The notes beneath the pieces are model-generated. The model saw nothing but the letters and a program-made list of their open reading frames with translations. It was not told the DNA's origin and searched no databases. From IMG/VR virus record IMGVR_UViG_2874933748_000006: DNA of 18,304 nucleotides; one strand, written 5' to 3'. The position numbers were made by a program, and so were the translations under genes. This DNA is from a virus (Duplodnaviria > Heunggongvirae > Uroviricota > Caudoviricetes). Below are positions 1 through 17,244 of the stretch, piece by piece. Position 1 is the stretch's first letter; every line of letters begins with the position of its first letter.

Positions 1-423
1 ATGGCGGATCTGTACAGTCATCGCTGGGAAATCGAACTGGGATACAGGGAGATAAAACAGACGATGCAACTGAGCAGGCTGACGCTGAGAAGTAAAAAGC
101 CGGAGCTTGTGGAGCAAGAGCTGTGGGGTGTCTTACTGGCTTATAATCTGGTGAGATATCAGATGATTAAAATGGCGGAACATCTGAAAGGTTACTGGCC
201 GAATCAACTGAGTTTCTCAGAATCATGCGGAATGGTGATGAGAATGCTGATGACATTGCAGGGCGCTTCACCGGGACGTATACCGGAGCTGATGCGCGAT
301 CTTGCAAGTATGGGACAACTTGTGAAATTACCGACGAGAAGGGAAAGGGCCTTCCCGAGAGTGGTAAAGGAGAGGCCCTGGAAATACCCCACAGCCCCGA
401 AAAAGAGCCAGTCAGTTGCTTAA
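1..423 (+). CDS. IS4-family DDE transposase, C-terminal 140 aa (partial, truncated by window start)
   Basis: Translation contains HRWEIELGYREIKQ, the YREK signature region of IS4-family transposases. The ORF starts at window position 1, so the N-terminus is missing. Confidence 0.8.
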   Translation: MADLYSHRWEIELGYREIKQTMQLSRLTLRSKKPELVEQELWGVLLAYNLVRYQMIKMAEHLKGYWPNQLSFSESCGMVMRMLMTLQGASPGRIPELMRDLASMGQLVKLPTRRERAFPRVVKERPWKYPTAPKKSQSVA

Positions 424-436
424 CTGACTGGCATTA
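1..436 (+). mobile_element. IS4-family insertion sequence, right-hand portion (left part lies outside the window)
   Basis: The transposase ORF runs to a stop at 421-423 and is followed by ctgactggcatta ending at 436, consistent with my recollection of the IS4 terminal inverted repeat (TAATGCCAGTCAG... on the complement). The exact end is not verified. Confidence 0.7.
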
Positions 437-549
437 GTCCCGGTGGTGATGTCTATCTCACACCGATGAACATGACCACGAAACCCTCCGATGGCAGTAA
501 GGCCGGTAAGCAGAAGGATAACGCCAATGCAGACGAAACAACGTCTTGA
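437..549 (+). pseudogene. 3' fragment of a phage head gene (probably portal) cut by the IS4 element
   Basis: An open frame begins directly at the IS4 end with no start codon (PGGDVYLTPMNMTTKPSDGSKAGKQKDNANADETTS, stop 547-549) and overlaps the start of the protease gene, as portal genes do in HK97-type head modules. The portal assignment is inferred from position only. Confidence 0.35.
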
Positions 550-889
550 TGTACCGCTGAGTCTGAAATCTGTCAGTGACTCCGGTGAGTTTGAAGGGTA
601 TGGCTCCGTCTTTGGTGTAAAGGACAGCCACGATGATGTGGTGATGTCCGGGGCATTTGCTGCTTCCCTGCGGGCGTGGAGTGACAGAAAAGCGTTACCT
701 GCGCTGCTCTGGCAGCACCGCATGGATGAACCCATCGGTGTTTACACCGAAATGAAGGAAGACGATGTCGGGCTTTACGTCAGGGGACGGTTGCTTATTG
801 ATGATGATCCCCTCGCAAAACGTGCACATGCACACATGAAGGCCGGTTCGTTAACCGGCCTTTCTATTGGGTACGTCCTGAAAGACTGA
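527..889 (+). pseudogene. HK97-family prohead protease, N-terminal fragment truncated at the IS3-family element
   Basis: ATG at 527 is preceded by AAGGA. The motif GEFEGYGSVFGVKDSHDDVVMSGAFAASL matches the prohead protease N-terminal region. The ORF ends at TGA 887-889, which coincides with the first bases of the IS element; only about 120 aa remain, so the gene is truncated. Confidence 0.7.
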
Positions 890-950
890 GGTAGCCTGAG
901 TTTAACGGACGCTCCTTCCTGAAATAGAATGGCATCAGAAGGAGCTAATA

Positions 951-1250
951 ATGAGCAGAAAAACCCAACGTTACTCTAAAGAGTTCAAAGCCGAAGCTGT
1001 CAGAACGGTTCTTGAAAATCAACTTTCGATCAGTGAAGGCGCTTCCCGATTATCTCTTCCTGAAGGCACTTTAGGACAATGGGTTACCGCCGCCAGAAAA
1101 GGGCTCGGTACTCCTGGTTCCCGCACGGTGGCTGAACTGGAATCTGAAATTCTGCAACTGCGTAAGGCGTTAAATGAAGCTCGCCTTGAGCGAGATATAT
1201 TAAAAAGCAACAGCGTATTTTGCACAGGAGTCGCTGAAAATACGCGTTAA
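951..1250 (+). CDS. IS3-family OrfA (helix-turn-helix protein), copy with altered C-terminus
   Basis: ATG at 951 preceded by GGAG. The N-terminal two thirds are a typical IS3-family OrfA with a leucine-zipper-like segment. The conserved C-terminal motif KATAYFAQESLK is encoded in the +1 frame at 1204-1239 rather than in this frame. Confidence 0.8.
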   Translation: MSRKTQRYSKEFKAEAVRTVLENQLSISEGASRLSLPEGTLGQWVTAARKGLGTPGSRTVAELESEILQLRKALNEARLERDILKSNSVFCTGVAENTR

Positions 1251-1287
1251 TCGAACAATGGCGACAACAATTTCCCATTGAAGCGAT

Positions 1288-15180: not shown

Positions 15181-15203
15181 TTTAATTTATCGCGAGAAAA
15201 ACT

Positions 15204-16472
15204 ATGTCTGTAGTGATATCAGGTGCGCTGACTGATGGCGCAGGCATCCCCATGTCCGGATGCCAGATTATTCTGAAATCCCGTGTAAACACCTCAGAAG
15301 TGGTGATGCGTACCAGGGCTGATGTAGTGACCGGAAATAACGGTGAATATTCGTTTGAGGCACAGGTCGGAAAATATTGCGTGTATCTGAAACGGGACTG
15401 GCGCGACGAGTACTGTGTTGGCGACATTGCTGTATACGACGACTCAAAGCCCGGCACGCTGAATGACTTTCTGATTGCTCCTGATGAGGGCGACCTGAAA
15501 CCGGATGTCGTCAAACGCTTTGAGGAAATGGTGGCGCAGGCGCAGCAGAGCGCCGGGGCCGCAGCCGGAAACGCACAGCAGACGGCGCAGGATGTGGCGG
15601 CAGCCGCAGGTTATGCCCGCGCAGCAGAGCAGGCCAAAAATGACATTGATGCTGCGCTGACCGGCACTCTGAAAACGGCTAACCATCTGTCTGAAATCGC
15701 AGCAGCAGGCGAAAAGGCACAACAGAAGTCCCGGGATAATCTGGGGCTGAAAAGTGCGGCCACGATGGAAGCACAGAGCGACATTTACGACCGGACAAAA
15801 GGCCGTCTGGCGATACCCGGCGCATTCGGCTTTGGGTGTGCTTTTCTGCCTGAAGATGTTATCCGTTTTGACACTAAGAGTGATTTCCTGGCCTGGGTAA
15901 GGAATGCGCTGCCAGGTGAATATTCCGTTGCTGGCCCCTACGACATCATCATACCCGACACACGGTTTGAAGGGGTGCTCAGCATCCGGTGGACTGATGC
16001 ACGCCCTGAGACAACAGAACCGAGGTACAGAGCCAAATCCCTTACTTTTTACGGCATTAACGGCCCCATTTATCACACCCGCTACTGCTACTGGCCCATA
16101 TCCAGACTGACTGGCTGGGTGAAAATAAATATAACCACAGAAGATATTATTTACAGAATCGTGGCGAGCTCTGTCTGCAACAGATGGGGAGACCCTGACA
16201 TTGGCGGGCTGATTATTGCTGCGTACCAGGGAGAAGCTGACGGTGATAAAGTCATCAGACTTGTCAGGGGGCAGTCATACAGAGGCTCACGACTGGGACC
16301 GGTGGGGATTTCAGTGCCCAGTACTCCCACCGGAACGTATATAGCATCCCCACAATTTTTCATTACGGGATGTTCAGAGCATTCATTACCGGGGTCATAT
16401 AGCGCCCTGTCCGGGGTGCCGGATGCTCATGTCTCTGGCGCAATGCCCGGGCTTTTTATTCGCACATCGTGA
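15204..16472 (+). CDS. Side tail fibre protein with a lambda Stf-like N-terminal domain
   Basis: The N-terminus (MSVVISGALTDGAGIPMSGCQIILKSRVNTSEVV...VYDDSKPGTLNDFL) closely matches the lambda Stf / prophage tail-fibre N-terminal domain as I recall it, followed by an Ala/Gln-rich segment and a distinct C-terminal domain. Confidence 0.75.
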   Translation: MSVVISGALTDGAGIPMSGCQIILKSRVNTSEVVMRTRADVVTGNNGEYSFEAQVGKYCVYLKRDWRDEYCVGDIAVYDDSKPGTLNDFLIAPDEGDLKPDVVKRFEEMVAQAQQSAGAAAGNAQQTAQDVAAAAGYARAAEQAKNDIDAALTGTLKTANHLSEIAAAGEKAQQKSRDNLGLKSAATMEAQSDIYDRTKGRLAIPGAFGFGCAFLPEDVIRFDTKSDFLAWVRNALPGEYSVAGPYDIIIPDTRFEGVLSIRWTDARPETTEPRYRAKSLTFYGINGPIYHTRYCYWPISRLTGWVKINITTEDIIYRIVASSVCNRWGDPDIGGLIIAAYQGEADGDKVIRLVRGQSYRGSRLGPVGISVPSTPTGTYIASPQFFITGCSEHSLPGSYSALSGVPDAHVSGAMPGLFIRTS

Positions 16473-16482
16473 GGAATGCACC

Positions 16483-17046
16483 GTGGAAATTAAAAAAATC
16501 ATTAATCCCCGTTATACCGAAAGTGGCGCAGTAGACTGTGACGTTTTTTTTGACGACAGGGACCAGGCAGTCCCCTACACAGCCACCGCTGATGATGTCG
16601 CACCGACGGGTCAGCGAATCTGGCAGGAACTGCAAAGTGGCAAATGGGGTGAGATAGCCCCATTCACTGTGACACCAGAAATGCTGGAAGCGGCCAGAGA
16701 GGCCAGACGTCAGGAAATTGAAGCATGGCGCACAGAACAGGAGGCGAAGCCGTTCACGTTTGAATGGAATGGTCGTATCTGGAATGCTGGCCCCGACTCA
16801 CTGGGCCGCCTGTCCCCGGTAGTCATGCTGGCAAAATCTGTCACAGCACAAACGCATATGGCGTGGGGTGATGCCGATAATCAGCAGGTGAAACTGTCGA
16901 TGCCGGAACTGGAAGAACTGGCGGCAGCAATGGTGCAGGCGCAGGTCGATCGCAACGATGAGATTTATCGCCGTCAGCGTGAAATGAAAGAGGAGCTGAG
17001 TGGTCTGGAGGATTTGGGAACAATTAGAGCGTTTGATGTTACGTAA
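16483..17046 (+). CDS. Putative tail fibre chaperone / assembly protein (DUF4376-like, family uncertain)
   Basis: GTG at 16483 is preceded by GAGGA (the upstream ATG at 16423 lies inside the fibre gene). The gene sits immediately downstream of the fibre gene and lacks the classical Tfa C-terminal motif. Family assignment is from memory and not verified. Confidence 0.45.
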   Translation: MEIKKIINPRYTESGAVDCDVFFDDRDQAVPYTATADDVAPTGQRIWQELQSGKWGEIAPFTVTPEMLEAAREARRQEIEAWRTEQEAKPFTFEWNGRIWNAGPDSLGRLSPVVMLAKSVTAQTHMAWGDADNQQVKLSMPELEELAAAMVQAQVDRNDEIYRRQREMKEELSGLEDLGTIRAFDVT

Positions 17047-17095
17047 TTGGTAAGCTGCATCGTGTTAAATTGTTACCCTTATTTACAACTAGAAA

Positions 17096-17126
17096 AGCCT
17101 CTGACTTCATAATCAGAGGCTTTTTT
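17096..17126 (+). terminator. Rho-independent terminator closing the tail-fibre operon (possibly bidirectional)
   Basis: Perfect 9-bp stem agcctctga (17096-17104), 8-nt loop, tcagaggct (17113-17121), then a T run to 17126. An A-rich tract on the other side would give a U-rich tail for transcripts arriving from ssrA. Confidence 0.8.
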
Positions 17127-17244
17127 GAAATGCACGTGCATTTTGCGTGTATATTTTTGTCTTTTTCTGGTCCGCTTACTGTCTGGTCAGTGTCCGTAAG
17201 TGACTGTTTTTATAGTCTCTGTCCGGTTGCAGTCCTGTCAAAAG

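Follow-up and report, generated by a model that had tools for sequence, protein, structure and literature searches.

Temperate phages of the phiP27/SfI/SfII/SfV group usually combine an HK97-family head with a Mu-like tail (PMC3851460), and phiP27, SfI, SfII, SfIV and SfV have in common the HK97-family head, a Mu-like baseplate and two fibre cassettes located at the right end by attR (PMC3851460). In Shigella sonnei, phiP27-like regions have been listed as intact (PMC5447701), and a recent report (Microb Genom 2026, PMC12795559) lists an IS4-flanked inversion that carries yfjF-ratA-smpB-ssrA together with phage genes, with a size of ~45 kb (lineage 2) or ~20 kb (lineage 3). Two E. coli prophages are also close to the locus described here. 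That of STEC308 (CP091020) has the same ssrA integration site and module order, including an accessory moron gene, but retains a complete head module and contains no IS. The prophage of FDAARGOS_944 (CP065613; locus L004 in our comparisons) is 98–100% identical over shared genes, but is integrated elsewhere, beside ipaH, and has independent ISEc60 hits in the portal and sheath genes.

We analyzed an 18,304-bp stretch of DNA (the window) that ends inside an IS4 element at one side and inside smpB at the other. Positions 437–17244, which abut ssrA-smpB, are half of a temperate myovirus prophage of the phiP27/SfV type, namely the tail-proximal one. The Stx2e phage phiP27 (NC_003356) matches 62% of the window with a nucleotide identity of 94.6% and is collinear from the sheath to the last fibre gene, the shared gene order running from the sheath to the DUF4376 protein. 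Compared to phiP27, the window copy shows no stx in the portion covered, carries a 160-aa moron between the tape measure and hub genes, encodes divergent fibres (75–93% identity), is located at ssrA, and is dead. In complete genomes, 16 loci, HE616528.1 (S. sonnei 53G; PMC5447701) among them, are 99.84–99.95% identical to the window and carry the same lesions. Because independent complete assemblies show it at all 16 loci, the structure is neither chance nor artefact. We consider it nearly certain that the locus as a whole is a dead half of a phiP27/SfV-type prophage at the ssrA 3′ end in S. sonnei, under erosion by the IS expansion that characterizes Shigella; no observation speaks against this.

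A preliminary description, made from the sequence alone, had read the region as a mosaic, defective prophage in which remnants of an HK97-type head accompany a Mu-like tail, with at least five lesions: an IS4 in an upstream head gene, an IS3-family insertion with loss of capsid genes, IS1 copies in a moron and in baseplate J, and a nonsense codon in a tail-fibre assembly gene (Tfa). Pfam matches and the similarity to phiP27 bear out the defective prophage, and all five lesions are real and lie at or near the places given for them; a frameshift in the gpP-like gene is a sixth. The 'mosaic' character, an HK97-family head joined to a Mu-like tail, is how phages of the phiP27/SfI/SfII/SfV group are normally built and no peculiarity of the locus. 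Altogether, the lesions of the tail-end half are four IS elements, one deletion of 3.5 kb, one stop codon and one frameshift. Within the window, the HK97-family head module is reduced to the 113-bp end of the portal gene and 120 codons of the protease gene, the capsid gene being deleted. Pfam matches were obtained for every member of the Mu-like set that makes up the contractile tail and baseplate (sheath, tube, tape measure and the gp43/44/45/46/47/48 homologues).

The window opens with the right-hand 436 bp of an IS4 (1–436, plus strand; Pfam DDE_Tnp_1, NCBIfam IS4 transposase), which comprises the C-terminal 140 transposase codons, with the stop at 421–423, and the terminal inverted repeat ...AACTGACTGGCATTA ending at 436. 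The portal remnant follows directly (437–549, plus strand; 99.6% identical to L004 2274–2386) and encodes the final ~37 codons up to a TGA at 547–549. Target duplications of IS4 range from 11 to 13 bp. Bases 437–448, GTCCCGGTGGTG, are one copy of a 12-bp duplication, and the other copy closes the N-terminal portal fragment in loci L021–L027, whose end, ...RPGGVMPIS*, is exactly the read-through predicted from the duplication. The element is thus identified as IS4 by 100% identity to annotated IS4 over 436 bp, by its terminal repeat and by the 12-bp duplication carried on the separated portal halves. In S. sonnei genomes (L005–L012), the left flank of this IS4 is the bamD/raiA intergenic region and not the portal gene, with bamD-rluD-yfiH-clpB lying upstream in S. 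sonnei relatives. The proposed insertion into an upstream head gene therefore holds in that IS4 did enter the portal gene, but what is now seen is a recombinant and no longer a simple insertion. Since the portal IS4 later acted as a recombination breakpoint, the prophage is split and the window contains just one of its halves. The remaining part of the portal gene and the terminase, lysis and replication genes (DnaB-RusA-Q-holin-lysozyme-Rz-HNH-TerS-TerL ahead of the N-terminal portal fragment) are found ~44.5 kb away in inverted orientation. The window IS4 and the ISEc60 in the FDAARGOS_944 portal gene are not the same event, being different elements inserted at points ~50 bp apart. An exact-match scan of genome contigs for the IS4/portal junction, in a collection with one genome per species that presumably does not list S. 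sonnei separately, returned none.

The portal IS4 shares hybrid flanks with two other IS4 copies, at bamD/raiA and at rnfH/bamE. With the three target sequences denoted x (CAGCCCTTGAGCTG), y (GCTCATTGAGC) and z (the portal duplication), their exchanges fit one inversion in 53G and CP044191.1 and two inversions in CP023645.1, CBDDMI01 and LR213449. Homologous recombination between the three IS4 copies, in one or two IS4–IS4 inversions, would generate these hybrid flanks. The state of the genome from which the window derives may be judged from its relatives: its four-copy VNTR agrees with the two-inversion genomes (state 2). A direct single inversion between the rnfH/bamE and portal IS4 copies was rejected for the lineage-3 state, because the predicted bamE-IS4-portal C-terminal and rnfH-IS4-portal N-terminal joins were not seen. 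Movement of the block as a composite transposon also gives x...x flanks, but fails to explain the intermediate state of 53G and CP044191.1. The lineage 2/3 inversion of PMC12795559 independently confirms this arrangement, agreeing with it in yfjF, ratA, smpB, ssrA, the phage genes, the IS4 bounds and the existence of two states; unlike the present analysis, that account, in its available part, gives no target duplications, portal-gene breakpoint or lesion inventory.

Next to the portal remnant, codons 1–120 of 216 of the HK97-family prohead serine protease gene (527–886, plus strand; Peptidase_S78) are 100% identical to residues 1–120 of the L004 protease (tblastn) and are cut by an IS600. In look-ups of this fragment, the version starting at 527 gave matches and the version with an upstream ATG (491–889) gave none. 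The IS600 (IS3 family; 887–2146, plus strand), 99% identical to copies annotated as 'IS3-like element IS600' and delimited by comparison with other IS600 copies, has TG...CA ends and two reading frames, orfA (951–1250) and orfB (1288–2103). A search at its ends for a 3-bp target duplication found none, as expected if a deletion came after the insertion. Compared to L004 and L002, 3,509 bp are absent here (L004 2726–6234), comprising the protease C-terminus, the major capsid, head-tail connector and head closure genes, a hypothetical gene, the tail terminator and DUF2635. The IS3-family insertion with capsid gene loss is thus an IS600 at which the major capsid gene has gone. The deletion may have been an adjacent deletion mediated by IS600 or may have arisen by recombination between two IS600 copies.

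The tail genes that follow are intact (2166–6387, plus strand; Pfam): the sheath (2166–3662), tube (3662–4018), assembly chaperone (4018–4353) and tape measure (4438–6387) are full-length and 99.4–100% identical to the L004 proteins. Beyond them lies the moron (6455–7713, plus strand; PHROGs phrog_5586, function unassigned; tblastn), for which neither Pfam nor NCBIfam yields a functional assignment. Its N-terminus resembles a lipoprotein signal (...ILTSCC), the GC content of its surroundings is low (0.43–0.44), and it is missing from phiP27 and found in L002, L003 and L004. The gene is split (6455–6564 and 7332–7713) by the first IS1 (6565–7331, plus strand; NCBIfam IS1 transposase), and the perfect 9-bp duplication CGTTAAAAC at 6556–6564 and 7332–7340, within the 160-aa reading frame, establishes the insertion. 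Because the moron is an accessory gene absent from phiP27, this insertion need not inactivate the phage. The element is 767 bp long in this window only and 768 bp in other S. sonnei genomes. A few homopolymer deletions in IS600 and in one IS1 copy are specific to the window and could reflect faulty assembly; the phage genes are untouched by them. Both IS1 copies of the window have a length of ~768 bp, terminal repeats GGTGATGCT.../GGTAATGAC..., insA/insB and a 9-bp target duplication.

The Mu-like baseplate genes (7760–11163, plus strand; Pfam) encode a DNA-circularisation/hub protein (7760–9151), a gpP/gp44-like protein (9148–10236), a gp45-like spike (10214–10747) and gp46 (10753–11163). Alignment and A-run counts reveal a one-base loss (A8>A7, at 10189–10195) in the gpP-like gene, a frameshift that alters the last six residues of the protein. 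A (GCTGGT)n repeat at 9696–9718 of the same gene varies in copy number between strains and could act as a minor typing marker; its matches in S. sonnei MLVA papers, judged by their titles, were taken to be primer sequences. The baseplate J/gp47 gene (11156–13015, plus strand) is split into 11156–11749 and 12518–13015, with Pfam Baseplate_J on both halves, which match residues 1–201 and 196–360 of L004 J (tblastn). The second IS1 (768 bp; 11750–12517, minus strand; NCBIfam) lies between them and is flanked by a perfect 9-bp duplication, GGGGGCGCA, at 11741–11749 and 12518–12526, confirming the insertion into J.

The gp48/YmfQ-like baseplate protein (13015–13605) and the first tail fibre (13580–14632) are encoded by intact reading frames (plus strand; Pfam, PHROGs, tblastn). 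In the tail-fibre assembly gene that follows (Caudo_TAP; 14635–15180, plus strand), comparison of the translation with phiP27 and L004 locates the nonsense codon: a C>T change converts CAA (Gln17) to TAA at 14683–14685, codon 17, and all eight S. sonnei loci covering the site (8/8) carry it. The second fibre cassette (15204–17046, plus strand; Pfam, PHROGs), made up of a fibre with a prophage tail-fibre N-terminal domain (15204–16472) and the DUF4376 protein (16423–17046), is intact and 97–98% identical to the L004 proteins. The right end of the prophage (17047–17244) contains a terminator-like hairpin (17093–17126) and abuts the ssrA 3′ end; the phiP27 match stops at 17016, and that of the STEC308 prophage, at the same site, runs through. 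On the minus strand lie ssrA (17245–17607; ARAGORN, Rfam; tag ANDENYALAA) and smpB (17822–18304; NCBIfam SmpB). The reported agreement of both with E. coli is complete: ssrA is identical to that of STEC308 at 363/363 positions and the SmpB protein is identical to E. coli SmpB.

A functional, inducible prophage has complete and uninterrupted modules for the head, the tail, lysis, replication and integration, all at a single locus. Here, the capsid and neck genes are deleted, the portal, J, Tfa and gpP genes are damaged, and the early and lysis half lies at the distant, inverted site. From this gene content, neither a particle nor a tailocin would be producible. It could be argued that selection maintains a head-less tail cluster as an R-type tailocin, or that the intact second fibre cassette serves the host, as the sheath, tube, chaperone, tape measure, hub, spike, gp46, gp48, both fibres and the DUF4376 protein are full-length and the head genes are lost, as in tailocins. 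We regard this as very improbable: in all S. sonnei loci covering these sites, IS1 interrupts J and the chaperone of the first fibre has an early stop, the gpP C-terminus is frameshifted, and the lysis and regulatory genes are not adjacent but in the inverted remote half. S. sonnei genomes differ too little in this region for selection to be measured, and recent decay is the simpler reading of the retained cassette; the remaining intact reading frames are probably just those not yet hit. There is a similarly slim prospect that the ~20-kb IS4-bounded block (the tail remnant with ssrA-smpB-ratA-rnfH) has been kept and repeatedly flipped to the benefit of S. sonnei, through its orientation or an intact gene such as the second fibre cassette; if so, the block would not be neutral debris.

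As judged by nucleotide identity, the host is Shigella sonnei. The comparison with Escherichia/Shigella genomes that the preliminary description had proposed gave S. sonnei, within Enterobacteriaceae, as the best matches, and its attribution of the IS1, IS4 and IS600 load to Shigella or enteroinvasive E. coli is narrowed to S. sonnei by the 16 loci at least 99.84% identical. An enteroinvasive E. coli host is highly implausible: FDAARGOS_944, the closest match in the E. coli collection, does carry its 98–100% identical prophage beside ipaH, but at another chromosomal site and with different IS hits, coverage of the window stays below 80% in all 5,426 complete E. coli genomes, lesion-specific proteins retrieved only loci at least 99.84% identical, among them that of S. 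sonnei 53G, and all named members of the truncated-portal protein cluster bear the label S. sonnei. The assembly chimera that the preliminary description had named as fatal to its reading, in which the IS junctions and the bamD-IS4-portal join would be mis-assemblies across repeated IS copies, can be practically dismissed: IS elements are classic mis-join sites and the small homopolymer indels of the window are confined to IS copies, suggesting imperfect repeat polishing, but the junctions are the same at all 16 loci, which come from independent complete assemblies, the 9-bp duplications at both IS1 copies are perfect, the IS4 flank swaps are reciprocal and self-consistent over three sites, and the inversion has been checked independently by long-read mapping (PMC12795559).

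Thus, the locus is correctly described as an example of IS-driven genome decay, but an ordinary one: the literature already contains both the inversion and the phiP27-like regions of S. sonnei, and nothing about it is novel. PHAST-type tools may call such fragments 'intact', and the lesion map therefore cautions against reading these labels literally. The importance of the locus beyond good annotation is small. Its value is as a fully resolved case in which the IS expansion of Shigella killed a prophage and IS copies then served as recombination sites that scattered its halves.

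The right end of the window carries the tmRNA gene ssrA (17245–17607, minus strand; ARAGORN and Rfam), whose tag, ANDENYALAA, is that of E. coli, and beside it smpB (17822–18304). Left of ssrA as far as base 437, the sequence is phage DNA broken by insertion sequences. In a megablast search of phage records, the top match was the Stx2e phage phiP27 (94.6% identity, 62% of the window), which is collinear with the window from the sheath gene through the last fibre gene; remoter relatives were SfI, SfII and SfV. Pfam matches comprise an HK97-type prohead protease fragment (Peptidase_S78), sheath, tube, assembly chaperone, tape measure, a DNA-circularisation/hub protein, a gpP/gp44-like protein, Mu gp45, gp46, baseplate J (gp47) and gp48, a first fibre with a lambda gpK-type fibre chaperone, and a second fibre with a prophage tail-fibre N-terminal domain, followed by a DUF4376 protein. 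The HK97 head remnants and Mu-like tail named in the preliminary description are thus confirmed. This combination is no local mosaic, however, but the layout standard in the phiP27/SfI/SfII/SfIV/SfV group. 3′ of the DUF4376 gene and close to ssrA, the right end of the prophage has a strong terminator-like hairpin, AAAAGCCTCTGACTTCATAATCAGAGGCTTTTTT (17093–17126).

None of 5,426 complete E. coli genomes covered at least 80% of the window. Lesions were called against three E. coli prophages taken as undamaged references: intact relatives in STEC308, at the same ssrA site, and in AST215, at a tRNA-Ser site, and a 98–100% identical prophage in FDAARGOS_944 (CP065613) that occupies another chromosomal site, directly adjoining a frameshifted ipaH gene. 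The FDAARGOS_944 locus (1–23000) has ISEc60 insertions of its own in the portal and sheath genes, the former at a point about 50 bp away from the IS4 site of S. sonnei, and shows the same phage type decaying in parallel in an E. coli that carries ipaH.

One lesion has removed head genes. The element at 887–2146 is IS600 (99% identity; ends set by comparison with other copies). The protease is cut off there after codon 120 of 216, and phage sequence restarts 19 bp before the sheath gene begins. Relative to FDAARGOS_944, 3,509 bp are gone, a stretch encoding the protease remainder, the major capsid protein, head-tail connector, head-closure protein and tail terminator, a hypothetical protein and DUF2635; an IS3-family insertion with loss of capsid genes had been correctly anticipated. 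No target duplication was found beside IS600 in the window, which fits a deletion after insertion, probably mediated by IS600.

Both IS1 copies are flanked by 9-bp duplications. The first (6565–7331; perfect duplication, CGTTAAAAC) interrupts a 160-aa ORF with a GTG start at 6455, which is absent from phiP27, present in the E. coli relatives, lies where GC drops to 0.43–0.44, and matches only phrog_5586 (unknown function). Moron is a fair label for it. The gene being accessory, this insertion, listed earlier among the inactivating lesions, need not have disabled the phage. The second IS1 (11750–12517, minus strand; GGGGGCGCA) splits baseplate J, as previously proposed. Deletions of 1–2 bases in homopolymers (6964–6966 in IS1; near 1203, 1240 and 1314 in IS600) occur only in the window's IS copies, the same copies elsewhere in S. 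sonnei being 768 and 1,264 bp long. Unpolished long-read errors in repeats are the probable cause; alternatively, the IS transposases have been inactivated specifically in this strain.

The nonsense codon noted beforehand in the first fibre-assembly gene (14635–15180) is a CAA to TAA change at 14683–14685: the gene reads MLHLKNITAGNPKTAE*YQ, with Gln at the stop position in FDAARGOS_944 and phiP27. A sixth lesion, beyond the five listed beforehand, affects the gpP-like gene, which has 362 codons versus 351 in the references. Shortening of an A8 run to A7 (10189–10195) replaces the last six residues, NVEEDF, with a 13-residue tail, MLRRISDERVFSS, extending the protein by seven. Neither phiP27 nor the E. 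coli relatives have A7, which is present in every sampled S. sonnei genome but one, an assembly with A6 and many further indels; the frameshift is therefore real and not a read error. The same gene contains an in-frame (GCTGGT)n repeat (9696–9718) with four copies in the window, two to five among the S. sonnei genomes compared, and a single copy or degenerate pair in phiP27 and FDAARGOS_944, the latter counted as two. The remaining tail ORFs, the first fibre aside, are full-length and 93–100% identical to those of FDAARGOS_944; the first fibre is a different allele, matched over its whole length by phrog_6859.

The window holds just one half of a split prophage. Bases 1–436 are 100% identical to IS4 and terminate in its terminal repeat; the portal gene's final 113 bp come next. 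Upstream of IS4, all eight leftward-extending loci have bamD, then rluD, yfiH and clpB, not the portal gene. A full-length portal query retrieved a 343-aa S. sonnei protein ending in RPGGVMPIS, the exact read-through predicted for a 12-bp duplication ahead of the IS4 left end. Its loci encode DnaB, RusA, antiterminator Q, ORF6N, holin, lysozyme, Rz, HNH, the small and large terminase subunits and the portal fragment, then IS4. At its end this fragment has GTCCCGGTGGTG, and the identical 12 bases stand at 437–448 in the window; since both portal halves carry this sequence, IS4 did insert in the portal gene, the upstream head gene of the initial suggestion.

Two chromosomal IS4 targets, x (CAGCCCTTGAGCTG, bamD/raiA interval) and y (GCTCATTGAGC, rnfH/bamE interval), together with the portal target, z, trace the rearrangement. 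In S. sonnei 53G the rnfH/bamE IS4 has y on each side, and CP044191.1 has the joins bamD-x/IS4/z-portal and portal-z/IS4/x-raiA: a one-inversion state. CP023645.1, CBDDMI01 and LR213449 have rnfH-y/IS4/x-raiA and portal-z/IS4/y-bamE, a second inversion; record ranges in CP023645.1 place the portal halves about 44.5 kb apart in opposite orientation. These reciprocal flank exchanges are observed directly, like the insertions with duplications, the deletion, the stop codon and the frameshift; homologous IS4–IS4 recombination would account for both inversions. Independently, PMC12795559 lists an inversion flanked by IS4 that contains yfjF, ratA, smpB and ssrA together with phage genes; in lineage 2 it measures about 45 kb, in lineage 3 about 20 kb, and long-read mapping was used there to check it.

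In two-inversion genomes (L022–L026, S. sonnei loci with the portal N-terminal fragment; 11016–13777), the IS4 by this fragment is interrupted by an IS3-family element, and that prophage half is bordered at its DnaB end by another IS3-family copy, with no integrase in the adjoining 10 kb. Both chromosomal IS4 targets (8445–8484 in L005; 18025–18064 and 19491–19520 in L016, loci resembling the window) lie in loops of terminator-like hairpins, AAAACGGCAGC-CCTTGA-GCTGCCGTTTT and AAAAAAGGTGCTC-ATTGA-GCACCTTTTTT. Older literature gives IS4 a target preference of AAA-N20-TTT, which these two sites fit.

The host is S. sonnei, consistent with the Shigella-type genome inferred initially. Two products specific to the lesions, the truncated protease and the J::IS1 fusion, were looked up by exact match and occurred in many complete chromosomes; all 16 loci fetched were 99.84–99.95% identical to the window, one of them (HE616528.1) being S. 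sonnei 53G (PMC5447701), and all named members of the truncated-portal protein cluster are labelled S. sonnei. An assembly chimera behind the IS junctions, raised earlier as a possible objection, is excluded because the same structure recurs in these 16 loci and the target duplications are clean. In one strain (CP044151.1; L018, 16088–20675), the match ends 38 bp into the ssrA 3′ end and is followed by a partial ssrA copy (one mismatch) and an integrase-bearing element, which indicates that this att site received a second element, now lodged between the remnant and ssrA.

PhiP27-like prophage regions of S. sonnei were listed by PHAST, some labelled intact (PMC5447701), and there is ample documentation of IS-driven decay and rearrangement in Shigella (PMC8072062). 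The inversion is published too (PMC12795559). The starting observation is accurate, though not new; it is refined here by a sixth lesion, by the recognition that the prophage is split and by exact coordinates for the junctions. We infer that neither virion nor tailocin can be made, given the missing capsid gene, the split portal and J genes and the truncated chaperone. Because this region hardly varies within S. sonnei, the intact second fibre cassette is more simply read as retained by chance after recent decay.
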